Below the pieces are notes generated by a model. It worked only from the letters and a program-made list of their open reading frames with translations, was not told where the DNA came from and made no database searches. DNA of 64,000 nucleotides from positions 68-64,067 of the forward strand of contig DAOPMC010000001.1 in the NCBI GenBank assembly GCA_035392025.1, given 5' to 3'. Made by a program: the position numbers and the translations under genes. Source of the DNA: Bacilli bacterium. GTDB lineage: Bacteria > Bacillota_I > Bacilli_A > RF39 > UBA660. The stretch's first letter is position 1; every line of letters begins with the position of its first letter. Positions 24,299 through 58,366 of this stretch are shown in pieces.

Positions 24299-24642
24299 TG
24301 GTGGAGCTGAGGGGAATTGAACCCCTGTCCAAAAATACAAATATTTAACTATCTACAAGTTTAGTTAATTAGTTAAATTCGCCATATAACTAATAATTAA
24401 CAAATATCATATGACTAGCTTATGGTTAATTTCTCTACTTCTTATAAGCACAAAAGTAGTATAGTTCACTTTAATTAGCCCTTAATATCTCTCGTGAACT
24501 AAGAGATAAGAAGAGCTTGCCTCTATATTAAATTAGGCAAATGCTAAATTTCTGTTTCCAGTTATTTAATTTGTTTGCATATAACGAGTGCCCCCGACTT
24601 GCAAATTAAACTTAATATCTCTGTCGAAACCAAATCAGCCCC
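24299..24642 (-). ncRNA. ssrA: tmRNA (transfer-messenger RNA, SsrA)
   Basis: Minus strand starts GGGGCTGATTTGGTTTCGACAG and ends ...GGGGTTCAATTCCCCTCAGCTCCACCA (tRNA-Ala-like T-arm plus acceptor/CCA); 5' GGGGCUG pairs with 3' CAGCUCC. An internal reading frame ends ...AAT TTA GCA TTT GCC TAA (tag ...NLAFA-stop). Confidence 0.85.
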
Positions 24643-40721: not shown

Positions 40722-43133
40722 TTAATAATTTAAGTATAAATTAGTGCTGCCATCAAAATAATCTAAATTTGCATCGCACCAAGTCTGTGTAGGCTCATTA
40801 CCAGCACCAAATGTTTTCGTTAAGTCTACTAGCAGAGCCCCATCGGCGTATGCTAGAAAACTTCCTTCCATCCCGTCGGACGCTGCCGATTGCCACCTGC
40901 CATGTGTCATTTCAAAATAAGTCATATCGCTATAATCATCAGTATCAACAACCACACTCTTTTTGACCCAACCACTACTTAATTCTGTTGATGTTAGCGA
41001 TGTAGGAAGATTCTGTGTGCTTGCCGTCCTTACTTTGAATTCCAGCGTATACGTGCCAGTTGTATTTGTAACTAATTTGTGATCTATTTTATAATAATAA
41101 ATATGCCCCGCCTCAAATGTATATGTTTGGTAGATATATGAAGAATATAAATTACTAGCCATATTCGTACAAATAGAATTACTTCCAAATCTTGAATATG
41201 AAGAAGACGTTGCTGTGTAACTTCCAACAATACTCCATCCTGTCGTACTGTCTTCAAAGCTACCATTTGTAACTATATTAGCAACCGTATATTGGATTCC
41301 ATCATCCCAGGCAGTCACTCTCTGCCCAAGAGATGTTTCGGGTCCCTCAGTGTGTATTACAGTTACATATGTACTTCCATTACTTGAAACACTTGTTACA
41401 TTATTATAATACGTTCTGCCATCTGCCCAATAATGCCATACCGCTATTTCATCTAAATTGTATGAAGATCCTAAATCGATAACTACACATTGATTACCCG
41501 TTGTGCCCTTTGCATAATTTGCACTTGTTATATCACCGTCTGTTATATTTGATATTGGATATGTTGCATCGTTTGTTATCCCTGTTGCTGTTAGTCCTTT
41601 TGCTATATTTTCTCCTTGATATATTGCCTGAAATTCTACCCACTGATTATATGTACTAGTGCTGTTACCGTTTATACAATTCTTAATATATCTAACATTA
41701 TTTAACCTTGTGTTTAATCTAGTTGGGGATGTTGTTCCTACATATGTGATTGTTGCTTTGCCATTACCAGTATTTGATTCTGAAACCATCTCAGTATCTA
41801 TAAAATATTTATTACTATAATGAATGATATCATCCGATGCCACAGTTGATGTTGAGGAAGTTATTGCATTTGCTCCTGCATATCCACTTATGAATGACGA
41901 TCCGCCAGCTGCTGAACCTACCACTGAACTTGATACATTTCCAGAAGCGCCTCCATAATATCCACCGCCTCCGCCAGCAATATACATCCATTCAGCTGTA
42001 AAGGTTGGATAATATCCACCTATTCCAAACGAACCATTATATCCAGTACCATCAGCGATAACACCTCCTAGAGTTTGAGTACCTCCGCCTGATGGCGTCA
42101 AGGTAGTTGAACCAAGTTGGGTAACGTTTCCAGAACCGCCGTAAAGGCCCCCAGCGATACCACCATTATTGAAATAAGTATTTCCATCGGATATATTGGC
42201 TCCTCCTCCTCCTCCAGCCACCATTATTCTTGAATTAAGCCCTAATTCTGAATTCCACGCTAATTGATCTGACGTTGGAGTAGTTACCCCAAAATATCTT
42301 ATATCTGTCGCTCCACCACCATTTGAATTAGTCGAAACAGTCGCTCCACTTCTAACTGCTAGTGTCCCTCTTCCGCCACCATTAAAACTTAGCGCATCTT
42401 TCGCACCAGTATAATTTTCGCCAATATATATGTATAATATTTCACCAGCATCTAGAAAAATTTTACCATTGGTATATCCACCCAGACCTCCAGTTTTTGT
42501 TAAATCACCATATGTGCTATTTCCACCTTGTGCTCCCCATGCTTCTATATTATAATATCCAGTTTTTGGCACTATAAATTGATTATAACTTCCAGTATAT
42601 GCATATTCTATATTTGAACTACTTGTTGATACGGCATAAGTATTAGCTCCTAGACTTGGAAATGAATAATCTGTTGGCAATGCTTCAACGCTAAATGTAA
42701 CCGTCGTTGATGAATCTCCCGTATTTTTTAATATTATTACTACTTGTTTTTCAGTTGTTGCCCCAATATTTCCTGATGCTATATCAAAATTAGTTAGATA
42801 TTTAGCTGTTACTGTGCCTGTTGTTGTATATATAGTCCTATATTTTAATTCCCATGGTGCATTGTTTTCAACATCTAGGCTTAAAACAATAGTTTCTCCT
42901 GCTGCAATCGTAAGACCGGTTGTTGCAGATGAAATATTTGATGTTAACGTTATTGGATTAGAAGAAATTAAGATTGCAACAGCAGCGTTTTTTTGTGTCT
43001 GCACCTCTAAAATAGCATAAGAAAAACTTGAAATTATTATTAATAATCCCAATATTATTGTCATATACATATATAAACTTTTAACTTCTTTGGTTAAAAA
43101 TTTGGCAATTTTTTTCTTCATATTTATAGCCAC
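40722..43133 (-). CDS. Large secreted/surface protein P2: TasA-like N-terminal module plus glycine-rich domain plus discoidin (F5/8 type C)-like plus CBM4/9-like domains
   Basis: N-terminal basic segment and TM (SipW-cognate-like); then a TasA-like block (ITLTSNISS...LTIAAGETIVLSLDVEN...); the 190-620 region is rich in GGGG/GGxGG runs; then a W..F.....QCVVIDLG..Y.LDEIAVWHYW segment (discoidin-like); then NGSFEDS..GW (CBM_4_9-like start). Confidence 0.55.
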   Translation of the reverse strand: MAINMKKKIAKFLTKEVKSLYMYMTIILGLLIIISSFSYAILEVQTQKNAAVAILISSNPITLTSNISSATTGLTIAAGETIVLSLDVENNAPWELKYRTIYTTTGTVTAKYLTNFDIASGNIGATTEKQVVIILKNTGDSSTTVTFSVEALPTDYSFPSLGANTYAVSTSSSNIEYAYTGSYNQFIVPKTGYYNIEAWGAQGGNSTYGDLTKTGGLGGYTNGKIFLDAGEILYIYIGENYTGAKDALSFNGGGRGTLAVRSGATVSTNSNGGGATDIRYFGVTTPTSDQLAWNSELGLNSRIMVAGGGGGANISDGNTYFNNGGIAGGLYGGSGNVTQLGSTTLTPSGGGTQTLGGVIADGTGYNGSFGIGGYYPTFTAEWMYIAGGGGGYYGGASGNVSSSVVGSAAGGSSFISGYAGANAITSSTSTVASDDIIHYSNKYFIDTEMVSESNTGNGKATITYVGTTSPTRLNTRLNNVRYIKNCINGNSTSTYNQWVEFQAIYQGENIAKGLTATGITNDATYPISNITDGDITSANYAKGTTGNQCVVIDLGSSYNLDEIAVWHYWADGRTYYNNVTSVSSNGSTYVTVIHTEGPETSLGQRVTAWDDGIQYTVANIVTNGSFEDSTTGWSIVGSYTATSSSYSRFGSNSICTNMASNLYSSYIYQTYTFEAGHIYYYKIDHKLVTNTTGTYTLEFKVRTASTQNLPTSLTSTELSSGWVKKSVVVDTDDYSDMTYFEMTHGRWQSAASDGMEGSFLAYADGALLVDLTKTFGAGNEPTQTWCDANLDYFDGSTNLYLNY

Positions 43134-43183: not shown

Positions 43184-45427
43184 TTACTTAATCACCTTTA
43201 ATTCATCAATTTTAATGTCTTTTTCTCCATCTAATAATTTCCCAAGAATGACAGAATCAATATAGTTGTCAATTATTTTATTTATCTTTCTAGCCCCATA
43301 GATGTTATATTCTGACAATCTAATTATTTCACCAACTAGTTTATTATTAAATTTAATGTTTAATTCTTCGCCCTTATAACTGTTTATTAGTAAGTTTAAA
43401 CTGTCTTTTACTATATCACTTATTATATCTTCAGTCATGTTATTAAAATATGATATATAATCCAGTCTGTTCAATATTTCAATACCTATTTTATTTTTTA
43501 AAATTTCATAATATTTTTCTTCATTAGTACTATTAAATCCTACTTTATTAATATTATTTTTAATATTAAATGTCATAATTATTATATTATTATCAAACCT
43601 TATCTCTTCCCCTTTGGAATTTTTAATTTTGCCATCATCAAGAATTTGCAAAAAAAGCTCTATAACATTTCTATGTGCCTTATCTATTTCATCCAAAAGT
43701 ATTACTGAATGTGGTTTCTCTTTTATCTCTTCTAATATATTTTTATTATCGCTATATCCAATATATCCTGGAGGAGATCCTATTATTTTGCTAATACTGT
43801 GTGCCTCTTTATATTCGCTCATATCAATTTTAATAAAATTATTTATGCCTAAAAATTCTTTAGTATATTCCTTAGCTAAAAATGTCTTGCCTGTTCCGGT
43901 TGAACCAGCAAATAAAATTGAAATTGGTTTGTTTTTTGTTCTAATATTTAAACATACTTTTTTACTTATATTTATAAGTTTATCTATTGTTGCTTCTTGC
44001 CCCTTGACCTTATCTAATAAATGTCTTCTAAGTTTAGTGGTATCATATATCATTTCATATACCGGGATCTTTGACTTGGCTTTTATCACATCCATTATAT
44101 CTTGTTTAGTAACTTCTTTAATAGTTTTATTATTGACCATTAAAATTTCTAAATTATTTATTTCATCTTCTATTTTTATTTCTTGCTCTTTATACATTGT
44201 TGCTTCTTGAAAATTATTATTAATAATCGCTTTGTTTTTCTTGTCTTTAACTAGGGCATGTTCTAAATTTAATTCTCTTATCTTGTTATTGTCTTCATTA
44301 TTTGATAATGCTACTTTTGACGATGCCTCATCCATAACATCTATTGCTTTGTCAGGCATTTTCCGATCATACAAAAATTTATCTGATAAGTAAATAATAT
44401 CGTTAATTGTATCATTACTTATTCTTACTTGGTGGAAGTTTTCATATATTGGTTTTATTTTAAGTAAAATGTCTTTCGTTTCTTCTATAGTTGGTTCACA
44501 TATATCAATTATTTGAAACCTTCTATCAAGTGCTTTATCTTCCATTATAGTTTTTTTATATTCTTCTTTAGTCGTAGCTCCGATCACTTTTATTTTGCCT
44601 CTGGCTAGTGCTGGTTTAAATATATTAGAAGCATCTATTGCGCCCTCTGCTCCTCCAGCTCCAACTAATGTATGGATTTCATCTATGAAAATGATAATAT
44701 TATTATTATTTTCTAGTTCTTTTATAATTTTGCTTACTCTATCTTCAAATTCACCTCTATACTTGGTTCCCGCTACTAAATTTGACATTGAGATCGAAAT
44801 AATTTTCTTGTTCTTTAAATTTGCGCCTACCCTATCTTCTACAATTCTTCTTGCAAGTTCTTCTACTATTGCAGTTTTCCCTACCCCTGCTTCTCCTAAT
44901 AATAGTGGATTATTTTTAGTTCTTCTGCCTAATATTTCCATTATTCTATCTATTTCTTTTTCCCTGCCTACAACAGGATCTATTTCCTTATTTATAACCT
45001 TTTTATTCAAATCAACGCCAAAAGTTTCTACATATAATTTATTATGTGTTTTAGGTTTATTAAAATCACTAACAAATTCATTATATATATCATTAATTTT
45101 AATATTCATTCCCAACATAAGTCTAATAGCGATTCCTTCTCCTTCATCAAATAATGCCAGCAAAAGATCATCAACTTCAACATAATCTTTATTTTTATCT
45201 TCACTATCACATATTGCATTATATATTATATTTTTTAGAAGAGGAGTATACAAAAAGAATTCACTTTTGATTTTTCCTAACCCAATAACTTTGATTAATT
45301 CGTTTTTAAACGTTGTATATGTAACTCCATATTTCTTAAGTTTTACTACATATTCATTGTCTTTATTCTTCAATATTGCTAGCATCAAATGCTCACTTCC
45401 AACATACGGATGGCATAATGCTTGCAT
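43184..45427 (-). CDS. clpC: ATP-dependent Clp protease ATP-binding subunit ClpC/ClpE-like (N-terminus disrupted by a frameshift; the true start is probably ATG at 45483)
   Basis: Two AAA modules (GEAGVGKTA; GSTGTGKTF) and a Clp_N repeat. The ATG at 45483-45481 with an AGGAGG RBS gives MFRNLVKKQKRF-stop, but a +1 shift at the AGAAATTT homopolymer gives MFRKFSEEAKKILINAKKEMQALCHPYVGSEHLMLAIL, which is collinear with the ClpC N-terminus. Confidence 0.8.
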   Translation of the reverse strand: MQALCHPYVGSEHLMLAILKNKDNEYVVKLKKYGVTYTTFKNELIKVIGLGKIKSEFFLYTPLLKNIIYNAICDSEDKNKDYVEVDDLLLALFDEGEGIAIRLMLGMNIKINDIYNEFVSDFNKPKTHNKLYVETFGVDLNKKVINKEIDPVVGREKEIDRIMEILGRRTKNNPLLLGEAGVGKTAIVEELARRIVEDRVGANLKNKKIISISMSNLVAGTKYRGEFEDRVSKIIKELENNNNIIIFIDEIHTLVGAGGAEGAIDASNIFKPALARGKIKVIGATTKEEYKKTIMEDKALDRRFQIIDICEPTIEETKDILLKIKPIYENFHQVRISNDTINDIIYLSDKFLYDRKMPDKAIDVMDEASSKVALSNNEDNNKIRELNLEHALVKDKKNKAIINNNFQEATMYKEQEIKIEDEINNLEILMVNNKTIKEVTKQDIMDVIKAKSKIPVYEMIYDTTKLRRHLLDKVKGQEATIDKLINISKKVCLNIRTKNKPISILFAGSTGTGKTFLAKEYTKEFLGINNFIKIDMSEYKEAHSISKIIGSPPGYIGYSDNKNILEEIKEKPHSVILLDEIDKAHRNVIELFLQILDDGKIKNSKGEEIRFDNNIIIMTFNIKNNINKVGFNSTNEEKYYEILKNKIGIEILNRLDYISYFNNMTEDIISDIVKDSLNLLINSYKGEELNIKFNNKLVGEIIRLSEYNIYGARKINKIIDNYIDSVILGKLLDGEKDIKIDELKVIK

Positions 45428-45602
45428 TTCTTTTTTGGCATTAATTAGAATCTTTTTTGCTTCTTCACTAAATTTCTAAACATAAACTAATTCCTCCTAT
45501 TATATAGTTTATGTTTATTATGAGTTTTTTATAGAATATTGATTCAACAAAAAAAGAGTTTTTAAATGAACTTGTCAACAAAAAGTGGACACTAAAAAAA
45601 TA

Positions 45603-46424
45603 TTATTTAAACCCTAGTTGAGTTCTATACTCGACTGGGGTTTTATAATTTAATGCAAAACTTGGGCGATAATTGTTATTATCCCAAACAATATTATCAA
45701 TAAATTCCTGAACTGTGTTATAATTATTCTTGTCAAAATCAATATGCATTTCTTTCTTCATCCAGCCATTTTTTGATTCGATGACTGGATTATCAGTAGG
45801 AGTTCCAGCTCGCGACATAGACCTGGTTATTTTATAAGAATTAAATATATTGTTGAATGACACTGAGGAATATACGGCTCCTTGATCTGTGTGGACAATA
45901 GTCTCAAGGTTTTCATATCCTCTTTTTATTTTACTATCTAGCATATTATTTAATGATTTCTTATGATTTAAAATGCCGTTTCCATGCATTGATTCTCTTA
46001 CGTCATAACCAACAATTTCATTATTAAAAACATCCAAATAAAAAGTCCAATCGTATGGTTTACCCTTAAAACCTATTGTTGTTGTATCAGATACAATTAT
46101 TTCGAATGGCCTTGACGTAGACCAATTACCTAAAATTATATTCTTAAATTTAATGGATTCATCTCCTGCAGGTTTATATTTATAATGTTTAGCTTTTGAT
46201 TTTATTTTTAATATTTTACATAATTTATGAACTAAATTGTTTGATACATACCATCCTGTTTCCCTTCTTATTATTGCATTAATTCTTTTATAACCATAAC
46301 TAGGTTTCCTCTTATGAATTTCTTTTATTAATTCTCCTAAATCTTTTCTGTTAATTTCATAATTGTTTAATATATCTTTATTCTTCATCCATTTATAATA
46401 TCCTGATCTTGAAACTTTTAACAT
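45603..46424 (-). CDS. IS3-family transposase OrfB (integrase catalytic core); the frame continues upstream to the frameshift site at about 46540
   Basis: rve-domain motifs (HTDQGAVYSS; D...E spacing). Upstream in the same frame reads ...EVTQIKYEIIELLSKEYNIKSLCIMLKVSRSGYYKWM, the typical OrfAB junction. Confidence 0.85.
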   Translation of the reverse strand: MLKVSRSGYYKWMKNKDILNNYEINRKDLGELIKEIHKRKPSYGYKRINAIIRRETGWYVSNNLVHKLCKILKIKSKAKHYKYKPAGDESIKFKNIILGNWSTSRPFEIIVSDTTTIGFKGKPYDWTFYLDVFNNEIVGYDVRESMHGNGILNHKKSLNNMLDSKIKRGYENLETIVHTDQGAVYSSVSFNNIFNSYKITRSMSRAGTPTDNPVIESKNGWMKKEMHIDFDKNNYNTVQEFIDNIVWDNNNYRPSFALNYKTPVEYRTQLGFK

Positions 46425-46489
46425 TATACATAAAGATTTAATATTATACTCTTTACTTAGTAATTCAATTATTTCATACTTTATCTGTG

Positions 46490-46837
46490 TTACTTCATGA
46501 ATTTTACAATTGAACCATCTCCTTTCGTTAGGTATCCTTTTTTTAATAATTCATTTTCGATTCTTAATTTCATATTTTCATATTCTAATTGTTCTTCCTT
46601 CGTTAACTCTTTTTTTCTAGAATATTTCATCAAAGGATTACCAGGCTTAGTTTTATTTTTTAAGCCTTCAATGCCAGATTCATTATACTTTTTTACCCAA
46701 TTGAAAATTAATCCAATATTAATGCCTGTTTCTCTAGAAACCTGTGATTGACTCTTTTCATTATTAATAATTGGTTTAATTATTTCATACTTTTCGTTTT
46801 CCGTTCTAATCATTTGTTTTTGACCTTTTTTAGCCAT
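46490..46837 (-). CDS. IS3-family transposase OrfA (HTH plus leucine zipper)
   Basis: 115 aa; N-terminal HTH (SQVSRETGIN), C-terminal heptad Leu repeats; ends just past the AAAAAAAG slippery site. Confidence 0.85.
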   Translation of the reverse strand: MAKKGQKQMIRTENEKYEIIKPIINNEKSQSQVSRETGINIGLIFNWVKKYNESGIEGLKNKTKPGNPLMKYSRKKELTKEEQLEYENMKLRIENELLKKGYLTKGDGSIVKFMK

Positions 46838-46932
46838 TTCATCATCTCCTTTATTAAATTATATCAAATAAAAAGTGGAAACACTTTTTTGTGTGTCCAC
46901 TTTTATATTACTACTTCATTTTTAAACTCTTT

Positions 46933-50045: not shown

Positions 50046-50300
50046 ATTTTTCCTCCTTCTATCAATAAAAAAACAACTCTTCCAAAGGACGAATTGTTCG
50101 TGGTACCACCTTAATTATATATTTAAAAATATATATCTCATATCTTTAACGGAGACTCCCGAAATATCTTATATACAATATTTAGCTCCAAGTCTTTATT
50201 CAGATAATTATCACTGTTATTTTTCACCCACCAATAACTCTCTACTAGCTAAAACTATCTTACTTGTCTCTTCTTTGCTTTTGCATGTATAGATAATAGC
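50046..50300 (-). promoter_or_regulatory. T-box riboswitch leader (Lys specifier) controlling lysS, with a candidate promoter at its 5' end
   Basis: Minus strand carries the T-box sequence AATTAAGGTGGTACCACG (plus 50100-50117) followed by a T-run terminator before the RBS; upstream stem I has an AGAGAG K-turn motif and a loop ...GGTGGGTGAAAAATAAC exposing AAA-A (Lys codon plus purine). TTGCAA-17-TATTAT promoter at about 50284-50312. Confidence 0.6.
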
Positions 50301-51489: not shown

Positions 51490-51774
51490 ATGTCTAATAT
51501 ATCAAATGCCATTAATATGAGTTTCAGGGTTGACAAAAATTTAAAAAAGCAAGCCGATGAATTGTTTAAAAACCTAGGAATGAATACAAGTGTTGCTTTA
51601 AACATGTTTCTAACGCAAAGCGTTAGAGAACAAAGTATACCTTTTATTTCTACAATGGATATTCCCAATAGAAGATTGCTTAACGCTTTAGAAGAAGTTG
51701 AAGCTATTGAAAGCGGGAAAATCAAAGCAAAACATTACGCAAGTTTTGATGAAGTACTAAAGGATGTTGATTAG
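51490..51774 (+). CDS. dinJ: Type II antitoxin, RelB/DinJ family
   Basis: 94 aa; N-terminal RHH-like SFRVDKNLKKQADELFKNLGMNTSVALNMFL typical of DinJ; stop overlaps the start of the downstream toxin gene. Confidence 0.7.
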   Translation: MSNISNAINMSFRVDKNLKKQADELFKNLGMNTSVALNMFLTQSVREQSIPFISTMDIPNRRLLNALEEVEAIESGKIKAKHYASFDEVLKDVD

Positions 51775-52055
51775 TGAAATATAAGATAATCATAACTGGT
51801 TCTTTTAAAAAACAATTGAAATTGATCAAAAAGAGAAAAAAGGATTTGGAAAAATTAACTATAGTAATTAATAGTTTGGCAAGCAATAAAAAACTAGACA
51901 AAAAATATAGAGATCACGCACTAACTAATAATATACAATTTAAAGATTGTAGAGAATGTCATATAGAACCGGATTGGCTCCTTGTTTATAAAAAGAATGA
52001 TAATGATTTAATTTTATTTCTAATTGAAACAGGCACCCATAGTGATTTATTCTAA
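51774..52055 (+). CDS. yafQ: Type II toxin, YafQ/RelE family mRNA interferase
   Basis: 93 aa; conserved ...KKY.DH.LTNN...CRECHI.PDWLLVYK...L.L..TGTHSDLF pattern of YafQ; GTG/ATG start coupled to the dinJ stop. Confidence 0.7.
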   Translation: MKYKIIITGSFKKQLKLIKKRKKDLEKLTIVINSLASNKKLDKKYRDHALTNNIQFKDCRECHIEPDWLLVYKKNDNDLILFLIETGTHSDLF

Positions 52056-56788: not shown

Positions 56789-58366
56789 TTACATCTCAGT
56801 TACAACATATGGATCAGCACTAGTTCCAGTACCTGTCACTTTAACTGTTGGTGCTAAATTTATTACAGGATATACATCCATAGAAGTGCTAGTAGATGTG
56901 CTGATAACTTCACCAATACTATTTGTCGATAACATATATGAAACACTGTTACTATATCCATAGGCAGACATGGTAAAATATGATGAAGTTTGTCTTAATA
57001 TATTAAATTTATTGATAACTCCAAGTTTTAATCCTGCGTATATTAGTTCATCACTTGATAACAATCCTATTTTTACATCATATAGATATGAATTAGAACA
57101 GGCATATGATGGAGAACCACTATTTGCCCTAGTATATGCTGAAGATGTATCATTACAGAAACTAGCTGATGATACAAATTTATCATAGTTTGATAAAGTA
57201 GAATCATACCATGATTCTAAACTCGTTTTAATCGCTGAATCCTCTGTTCCACTTCCACCATCATAAGTATACCCCAAATACGTAGATGCATTTGATAGAG
57301 CGTTATATGTACTTGCAGTTCCTGTTGCTGTTGTTTTAACTAATCTTATAGTATCATCTTCATTAACCCTAACAATTCGCCAATTTGAACCTGCAAATAA
57401 AACATAATTATTTATAATGTTTCCTCGATAAAAATATGTATCCTTACTATCTTGCCCAGTTACTTTATATACCCCGTTTTCCACAGTATATAATGATTGT
57501 GCACCATTATTATTATAATAACTCGTACATGTCGTTAAATTATAGTTTGCATTGTTTGAATCACAATATTGGCAATAATCACTGACATAATAATTACCCA
57601 TTGTGTCACACACTTTAGTTTGATAGTCTGAAACTGATGTTGGGGCATTATCATAATATGTTGAACTTGCAGCAGCTTTGGTAGTTGTAATTGCAGTTGT
57701 AATAACATTTTCTTCATCTTCTCCAATTATCAAATCTTTTAATAATAATGGTGTCTCCTGAGAAGAAGATACTATTAACTTTTTATGAAAATGTCTTCCT
57801 ACTATGCTACTTGGTGCATCTGATTTTATCCAAGTATTTAGTGAATATGTAACAGATGCTCCTACATTTAATGATACTCTTAATATTTGTCCTCCTGTAG
57901 TTAGTTCCATAGGTTCATAAGTAATTGAGTTTGTCTCATCTATTAACTGATATCTAACATTATTATTATCAAGCAGATTAGAATTACATCCACAAGTCGT
58001 AATTGCATCCGTATCGTTTTCTAAAGTTAAAGTTACGATTGCTTTTACATTGCCACTATTTGTTACTCTAAATTTATATGGTGTTTGTAATATTCCTTCC
58101 GCATCACTTTTAGGAAGTGCATTGGTAAGTGATATTGTGCCGCCTAGACCAGTTGCTGTATCATCAAAAGTAACACTAAGAGAACCAACAGTTACCGTAT
58201 TATGCCCAGTTCCTTCATCTAAATCAGTAAATATGGCAAAACTAGAACCCGCAATTAAAAATACTAACACAAAAATTGATATGAAACTTATAATTGCTTC
58301 CTTACCATATTTTTGTATTAATCTTTCTTTTTTTAATTTTAAGTATCCTAGTCTTTCTTTTTCCAT
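56789..58366 (-). CDS. TasA/camelysin-like secreted protein, paralog P3 (525 aa, extended C-terminal region)
   Basis: Basic N-terminus plus TM, then AGSSFAIFTDLDEGTGHNTVTVGSLSVTF...ISLTNALPKSD...YKFRVTNSGNVKAIVTL, which aligns with the SipW-cognate signal region and N-terminal domain of B. subtilis TasA (AFND...TFASGTLDL...NLSNLKPGD...FQFENNGSLAIK). Confidence 0.65.
   Translation of the reverse strand: MEKERLGYLKLKKERLIQKYGKEAIISFISIFVLVFLIAGSSFAIFTDLDEGTGHNTVTVGSLSVTFDDTATGLGGTISLTNALPKSDAEGILQTPYKFRVTNSGNVKAIVTLTLENDTDAITTCGCNSNLLDNNNVRYQLIDETNSITYEPMELTTGGQILRVSLNVGASVTYSLNTWIKSDAPSSIVGRHFHKKLIVSSSQETPLLLKDLIIGEDEENVITTAITTTKAAASSTYYDNAPTSVSDYQTKVCDTMGNYYVSDYCQYCDSNNANYNLTTCTSYYNNNGAQSLYTVENGVYKVTGQDSKDTYFYRGNIINNYVLFAGSNWRIVRVNEDDTIRLVKTTATGTASTYNALSNASTYLGYTYDGGSGTEDSAIKTSLESWYDSTLSNYDKFVSSASFCNDTSSAYTRANSGSPSYACSNSYLYDVKIGLLSSDELIYAGLKLGVINKFNILRQTSSYFTMSAYGYSNSVSYMLSTNSIGEVISTSTSTSMDVYPVINLAPTVKVTGTGTSADPYVVTEM

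Follow-up and report, generated by a model that had tools for sequence, protein, structure and literature searches.

The window analyzed here is a 64,000-nucleotide stretch of contig DAOPMC010000001.1 (GenBank assembly GCA_035392025.1, Bacilli bacterium), with a guanine-plus-cytosine content of 29%, in which the gene for a ClpC-type ATPase is interrupted by a frameshift within its first codons and an insertion sequence (IS) of the IS3 family lies directly upstream; all clpC and IS coordinates are window positions and are read on the minus strand. The ancestral clpC start is marked by the Shine-Dalgarno (SD) motif AGGAGG at 45493 to 45498, which is kept in relatives and lies 9 nt from the ATG at 45483 to 45481. 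The initial annotation had correctly placed both the motif and the start, with a spacer given as 8 nt. From this ATG, translation would run for 12 codons, MFRNLVKKQKRF, and end at the TAA at 45447 to 45445, so that the remnant frame occupies 45445 to 45483; the frame at offset +2 (equivalent to −1) reads V-stop-KFSEEAKKILINAKKEMQALCHPYVGSEHLML, its TAG being at 45476 to 45478. The early stop and the shifted frame that continues into a 747-amino-acid (aa) open reading frame (ORF) had both been predicted, and both are present: the remainder of clpC is open and undamaged from 45475 to 43184, with 763 codons plus a stop. The lesion itself is a run of three adenines at 45473 to 45475, in clpC codon 4, where all seven intact relatives carry four, i.e., a 1-bp deletion, and addition of one A to this run yields MFRKFSEEAKK, the exact N terminus of intact proteins from other assemblies. 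In the NCBI annotation the gene appears as the 747-aa ORF (HPE14250.1, 43184 to 45427), which begins at ATG 45427, a codon without an SD sequence.

The protein is called ClpC-type because of its similarity, its architecture, and its chromosomal location between lysS and cysS, a setting that presumably matches the clpC neighborhood of Bacillus subtilis. In the shifted-frame translation, a Clp_N domain (Pfam PF02861, E = 1.1e-14) spans residues 13 to 65 and is followed by two AAA+ modules (PF00004 at 191 to 320 and PF07724 at 517 to 673), with AAA_lid_9 and ClpB_D2-small as further domains and with readable Walker A and B motifs in both modules (GEAGVGKT with FIDEIH and GSTGTGKT with LLDEID). 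The six best PDB sequences were all ClpC (Staphylococcus aureus 6EM8 and 6EM9 and B. subtilis 3J3S among them), each aligned in one stretch from residues 1 or 2 to approximately 755 with E values of about 1e-154 to 1e-153; ClpC1, ClpB, ClpE, and ClpA followed behind, the last three with lower scores and partial coverage only. When the translation was aligned with B. subtilis ClpC, residues 1 to 753 paired with residues 2 to 784, the N termini were collinear with those of both B. subtilis and S. aureus ClpC, and in the residue-level alignment MFRKFSEEAKKILINAKKE of the shifted frame paired with the N-terminal stretch of the B. subtilis protein. The VGF loop, which we take to be the ClpP-docking loop of ClpC, is present as well, with NKVGFN of the query aligned to NKYVGFN of B. 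subtilis. The protein thus shares with B. subtilis and S. aureus ClpC (MecB) the end-to-end alignment, Clp_N, the two AAA+ modules, a short middle domain, and the VGF loop; it differs from them in being approximately 45 residues shorter (766 versus 810 to 818 residues), in being frameshifted at codon 4, and in its locus, which lacks ctsR-mcsA-mcsB upstream and has a DcuC/YfcC-like transporter gene between lysS and clpC. No NCBIfam equivalog scored above its cut-off for the shifted-frame protein.

The initial annotation had called for a comparison with clpC of related genomes, and this comparison carries most of the argument. The repaired protein used as a query retrieved a 766-aa protein at about 100% identity, whose cluster holds five 766-aa variants together with a 747-aa and a 733-aa call; contigs taken for three of the 766-aa variants led to seven assemblies of the same locus from other samples (L001 and L005 to L010: ERR13731087, SRR29243443, SRR8925790, SRR8925745, SRR8925823, and SRR8925814 from Logan and the NCBI metagenome-assembled genome [MAG] GCA_964401505.1), all 99.9 to 100% identical to the window. 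In every one of the seven, the site reads AGAAAATTT / AGGAGGAATTAGTTTATGTTTAGAAAATTTAGTG with four A, as the proposed single-base loss in AGAAA(A)TTT had predicted, and the gene encodes an intact 766-aa protein; the window reads AGAAATTT with three. Compared to clpC of L005 to L007, the window gene shows one gap and zero substitutions, and the residues of the shifted-frame translation all recur unchanged in the intact protein P0122 (763 of 763), so that the match of the shifted frame is not due to chance. Because the MF(R/S)(K/N)FSEEA N terminus and its SD sequence are kept in relatives down to 49% identity, the in-frame 766-aa gene must be ancestral and the window must have lost one A; because the rest of the gene shows no decay, the loss would be very recent. 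We therefore regard it as likely that the change from AAAA to AAA at clpC codon 4 is a genuine, very recent, and lineage-specific one-base deletion that creates a null or hypomorphic allele.

Two further observations were made in these comparisons. Over 6.6 kb, L001 (protein P0001) differs from the window by two substitutions only, both in clpC and both protein-changing (K to E in DRKMPDK and S to N in INISKK), and comparison with more distant homologues indicates that the window holds the ancestral residue in both cases. A more distant contig, L011 (CAYVPJ010000101.1), whose clpC has 90% identity and whose upstream region is the same, belongs to a MAG recorded as "uncultured Oscillospiraceae"; the other relatives are labeled Bacilli, and the deviating label is probably a binning or naming error. 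A distant blastn search with the region in a plasmid collection gave no match.

In the seven intact relatives, the upstream transporter gene is separated from clpC by just 89 bp, which contain no IS. In the window, alignment to this empty site delimits an insertion of 1,352 bp at 45567 to 46918, an intact IS3-family element. Its end near clpC had been noted before at about 90 bp; the element is there, and the distance to the ATG is 83 nt. The element is bounded by imperfect terminal inverted repeats (TGAAGTAGT...AAAAGTGGACAC at 46893 to 46918 and GTGTCCACTTTTTGTTGACAAGTTCA at 45567 to 45592), and its termini, TGAAGTAGT... and ...GACAAGTTCA, have the form 5'-TG...CA-3'. Within it, orfA (46490 to 46837) encodes a 115-aa helix-turn-helix (HTH) protein and contains an A7 run at 46538 to 46544 (A_AAA_AAA G), the −1 frameshift site for the passage into orfB, which the −1 frame reaches from 46538 without a stop; orfB (45603 to 46424, 273 aa from its first ATG) carries domain matches to HTH_21 and to the rve DDE integrase core, and the transposase scored 176.4 bits against NCBIfam NF033516 (transpos_IS3), above the cut-off of 160. 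Comparison with the empty site also reveals an 8-bp target-site duplication, TTTAAAAA, with its left copy at 46919 to 46926 and its right copy at 45559 to 45566. The ends are confirmed by copies with 82% identity from other metagenomes, whose alignments begin exactly at base 1 and end exactly at base 1352 and which carry 8-bp duplications of their own, so that duplications of this length were found at four independent sites, that of the window and three sites of related copies (flanks of L017, L020, L024, and L025), with the sequences TTTAAAAA, TATTAAAC, CTTAAATT, and ATATAAAT. The usual target duplication of the IS3 family is 3 to 5 bp. For IS1447, a length of 3 to 4 bp has been reported (PMC6211511). 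The element therefore resembles the IS150/IS911-like members of the family in its HTH-encoding orfA, its orfB with an rve DDE core in the −1 frame, its A7 slippery run, and its TG...CA inverted repeats, and departs from them in the length of its duplication, which is unusual. When another contig encoding an identical transposase was looked for, only the window's own contig was found. In L021, L022, and L023, all of them ENA MEGAHIT or scaffold contigs with related copies, the left flank belongs to one IS site (after mreD) and the right flank to a different one; without a matching target duplication, these contigs have the appearance of chimeras that arose when the assembly bridged separate IS copies.

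The IS and the three-A allele were found together in three assemblies: contig Ga0116240_10000510 of JGI metagenome 3300010349 (64,404 bp), the ENA MEGAHIT contig k141_656773 (64,507 bp), and one contig of the Logan assembly of SRR5007151. Over 6.9 to 10.2 kb, each has 100% identity to the window, and the three show no differences from one another. The near-equal sizes of the first two and the complete identity suggest a single read set, so that the three assemblies probably represent one read set processed by three pipelines; the agreement of three pipelines makes an assembler artefact unlikely. These data bear on the possibility that the organism in fact has AAAA and an intact clpC and that the missing A is an artefact of metagenome sequencing or assembly. 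Such an error would be in keeping with the position of the change in a homopolymer, with the nature of the window, which is a metagenome contig, and with the occurrence of the AAA allele in one apparent sample only, when every other sample has AAAA. Against this stand the identical sequence obtained by different pipelines and the linkage of the allele to the IS insertion, a structural change that independently marks a separate lineage. Moreover, the name k141 points to a MEGAHIT short-read assembly, and runs of 3 or 4 bases are rarely wrong at the consensus depth of such assemblies. Finally, the ORF map of the 64 kb is dense and no other gene appears split or frameshifted, its larger gaps holding a transfer-messenger RNA (tmRNA) gene, a T-box leader, a RelB/YafQ pair, SpoVG, and other small ORFs.

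On balance, we judge the mutation very probably real, and an error quite unlikely. Several considerations nonetheless weigh against a genuine null allele. The three agreeing assemblies most likely stem from one read set, so that an artefact at the level of the reads is possible, and the deletion is presumed, from the assemblies, to be present in the reads themselves; the AAA allele was not encountered in a second, independent sample; a metagenome assembly is a consensus and may conceal an intact allele present as a minority in that sample; and the null, as opposed to hypomorphic, status of the allele is likewise presumed. Among the three alternatives offered by the initial annotation, these results favor real mutation, or incipient pseudogenization, and weaken assembly error, given the agreement of the pipelines and the absence of another broken gene. 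They also illustrate how near-identical public assemblies can be used to settle a question of frameshift versus error without access to reads. The annotation of HPE14250.1, which is shown as if it were an intact "ATP-dependent Clp protease ATP-binding subunit" of 747 aa, should carry a mark that the gene is disrupted, as the ancestral protein has 766 aa and the allele is frameshifted at codon 4.

With a real deletion, the question becomes what the allele could still make. To compare candidate starts, we used the pairing energy with an assumed Firmicutes anti-SD sequence, for which the median ATG triplet on the strand scores −3.2 kcal/mol. By this measure, ATG 45483 reaches −10.2 kcal/mol through the AGGAGG at 45493 to 45498, and ribosomes would be expected to begin at this strong and conserved site and to stop after 12 codons, giving a 12-residue peptide and no full-length ClpC. 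The restart at ATG 45427 that had been proposed earlier scores only −1.5 kcal/mol, weaker than the median ATG, and is unlikely because it has no SD. A better candidate for an internal start is ATG 45385, preceded by the SD-like GGAAGTGA at 45393 to 45400 (the site as a whole spanning 45383 to 45400); its −8.8 kcal/mol falls between the 5th (−9.4) and 10th (−7.6) percentiles of ATGs on the strand, and judged from these sequence features it is the more plausible of the two. The ENA and Logan gene calls begin there (P0126, 733 aa). A product from ATG 45385 would be shorter by 33 residues at its N terminus and would be missing the conserved first Clp_N helix.

Re-initiation at either of these codons might in principle yield a functional, N-terminally clipped ClpC, a working ATPase with altered control by adaptors and substrates. 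The 763 downstream codons are undamaged, ATG 45385 has its SD-like sequence and was chosen by the gene callers, and ATG 45427 lies 17 nt past the stop of the 12-codon remnant, where re-initiation after termination is conceivable. However, ATG 45427 would have to act essentially without an SD, in competition with the out-of-frame ATG 45441 (−1.8 kcal/mol), which lies only 3 nt after that stop; both starts remove the conserved first Clp_N helix, a loss expected to destabilize the eight-helix Clp N-domain; and the intact remainder of the gene is equally explained by a very recent mutation. A functional clipped protein is thus an unlikely outcome. Any residual product would rather be an N-terminally clipped protein that starts internally, at 45385 more readily than at 45427, and is missing the first Clp_N helix or helices. 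Because the ClpC N-domain is required for adaptor-dependent activation, we infer that the allele is null or strongly hypomorphic.

The deletion also has a side effect on the sequence of the start region. By converting AGA AAA TTT to AGA AAT TTA, it creates the heptamer A_AAT_TTA at 45469 to 45475, which has the form X_XXY_YYZ when read in frame with ATG 45483 and may permit weak spontaneous −1 slippage; a −1 slip here would restore the frame and give MFRNLSEE.... The heptamer, together with the strong SD upstream and the use of a −1 site, A_AAA_AAA G, by the neighboring IS in the same organism, raises the idea that recoding rescues a useful level of full-length ClpC. This is contradicted by several lines of evidence. 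The heptamer occurs in the mutant allele only, as the relatives, seven of seven close and four of four more distant, have simply a single frame and none the two-frame arrangement of a conserved programmed site. The downstream 79 nt fold at −9.4 kcal/mol compared to −9.9 kcal/mol for shuffled sequences (z = 0.20), i.e., without a stimulatory structure. The SD precedes the heptamer by 17 nt, more than the 10 to 14 nt at which an SD stimulates frameshifting at dnaX-type sites. In Escherichia coli, heptamers without stimulators reach at most approximately 10-fold a background of 0.055%, and motifs with heterogeneous purine/pyrimidine ZZN codons such as UUA are poor slippery motifs (PMC4066793). 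Programmed −1 frameshifting at A_AAT_TTA was accordingly rejected, the site being unconserved, without a stimulatory structure, and of a poor motif class, and recoding at a useful level is extremely improbable. The situation resembles the savior, or adventitious, frameshift correction described at indels (PMC5009743) in that a one-base indel lies by a slippery sequence and low-level restoration of the frame is possible in principle; it differs from it in that no stimulator and no conservation accompany the site and an efficiency well under 1% is to be expected. A trace of full-length ClpC might thus arise by spontaneous −1 slippage, and nothing suggests that slippage is used.

The IS insertion bears on the transcription of clpC as well. 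The element entered the hairpin that serves the transporter gene as its terminator, in the loop and the upper part of the stem; in the empty site of L001, this hairpin reads AAAGAGTTT-AA-AAACTCTTT followed by a T run. In the window, the 5' half of the hairpin, AAAGAGTTT (46924 to 46932), is parted by the IS from the 3' half, AAACTCTTT (45553 to 45561), and its T run (45546 to 45552), which together occupy 45546 to 45561 by comparison with the empty site. The insertion would thereby remove the terminator that separates upstream transcription from clpC. A possible −10 box of clpC, CATAAT at 45517 to 45522, proposed tentatively, is found at a similar distance from the start in L011 to L014 and lies downstream of the IS, so that the core promoter may be retained. 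A simple promoter scan found no consensus promoter in the CATAAT region and no IS-hybrid promoter on the clpC strand. A hybrid outward promoter from the IS had been a candidate, with TTGACA at 45572 to 45577 in the right inverted repeat, but was discarded, as a 17-nt spacer leads from it to TTTTTT.

The genes ctsR-mcsA-mcsB, which the initial annotation had reported missing upstream of clpC, are indeed absent; what lies upstream is the IS, the DcuC/YfcC-like transporter gene, and lysS with its T-box leader. The ctsR-mcsA-mcsB-clpC operon is typical of Bacillus, Staphylococcus, and Listeria, and its absence concerns genomic context and breaks no strict requirement of the family. As the order of lysS, the DcuC/YfcC-like transporter gene, and clpC is the same in close relatives and in MAGs whose ClpC has approximately 50% identity, the lack of ctsR-mcsA-mcsB is a trait of the lineage and not a consequence of the IS. 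No GGTCAAA-type CtsR heptad repeat was seen by eye in the 83 nt upstream of clpC, a region for which no formal scan was run. The T-box leader lies directly upstream of lysS at 50082 to 50284 on the minus strand and scored 121.5 bits against Rfam, with a gathering score of 93.

Altogether, the lineage with the one-base deletion also gained an IS3-family element, itself intact, which split the transporter terminator and ends 83 nt from the clpC ATG. Both structural changes are no farther than about 100 bp from the clpC 5' end, and yet the IS-bearing lineage differs from L005 to L007 by only 0 to 3 substitutions over about 6.6 kb. Two such changes in so similar a lineage are suggestive, and one may ask whether the frameshift and the IS are two hits selected on clpC, i.e., adaptive loss or re-tuning of the gene. 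If so, re-tuning could consist of IS-driven read-through after loss of the terminator, combined with a trace of full-length protein made by −1 slippage on A_AAT_TTA; alternatively, it could consist of an adaptor-independent ClpC without its N-domain, made from the internal SD and ATG 45385. Under such selection, the lesions would be a hint that this uncultured Bacilli lineage can do without ClpC in its habitat or pays a cost for having it.

We give such selection little weight, and consider it improbable, because the pair of changes is known from one lineage only, because the IS may have a target preference, and because no intermediate genotype was found: neither the IS without the deletion nor the deletion without the IS was seen in the ClpC cluster or in scans of metagenome contigs, in a collection that does not include the window's own contig. 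Two such scans, the first open to both alleles and the second with a 49-mer from the common sequence downstream, gave no match, and no additional JGI sample came to light. With respect to target preference, two of the four insertion sites of this IS group (those of the window and L020) are in the loop of a terminator-like hairpin, which hints that the group prefers AT-rich hairpin loops. The L020 copy lies in the hairpin AAAATGTGC...GCACATTTT, around positions 960 to 1000 and 2350 to 2390 of that contig. The site in the window may therefore reflect a preference for AT-rich targets and not selection on clpC, and any causal link between the deletion and the IS is conjectural. Loss-of-function alleles and IS insertions near stress-protease genes are commonplace, and the locus is an ordinary recent frameshift allele beside a fresh IS3-family insertion, a kind of event that is already known.

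Some other features of the window are worth recording. The gene directly downstream of clpC (40722 to 43133, minus strand) encodes an 803-aa protein with an ALK/LTK glycine-rich domain. The tmRNA gene lies at 24299 to 24642 on the minus strand, with the tag peptide GNRNLAFA, and was detected both by Rfam (169.9 bits) and by ARAGORN. On the opposite strand to clpC, a pair encoding a RelB antitoxin and a YafQ/ParE-type toxin (51490 to 52055, plus strand) is located between dusB and ftsH. Lastly, a 525-aa Ser/Thr-rich ORF at 56789 to 58366 on the minus strand has an N-terminal hydrophobic segment and no Pfam match.

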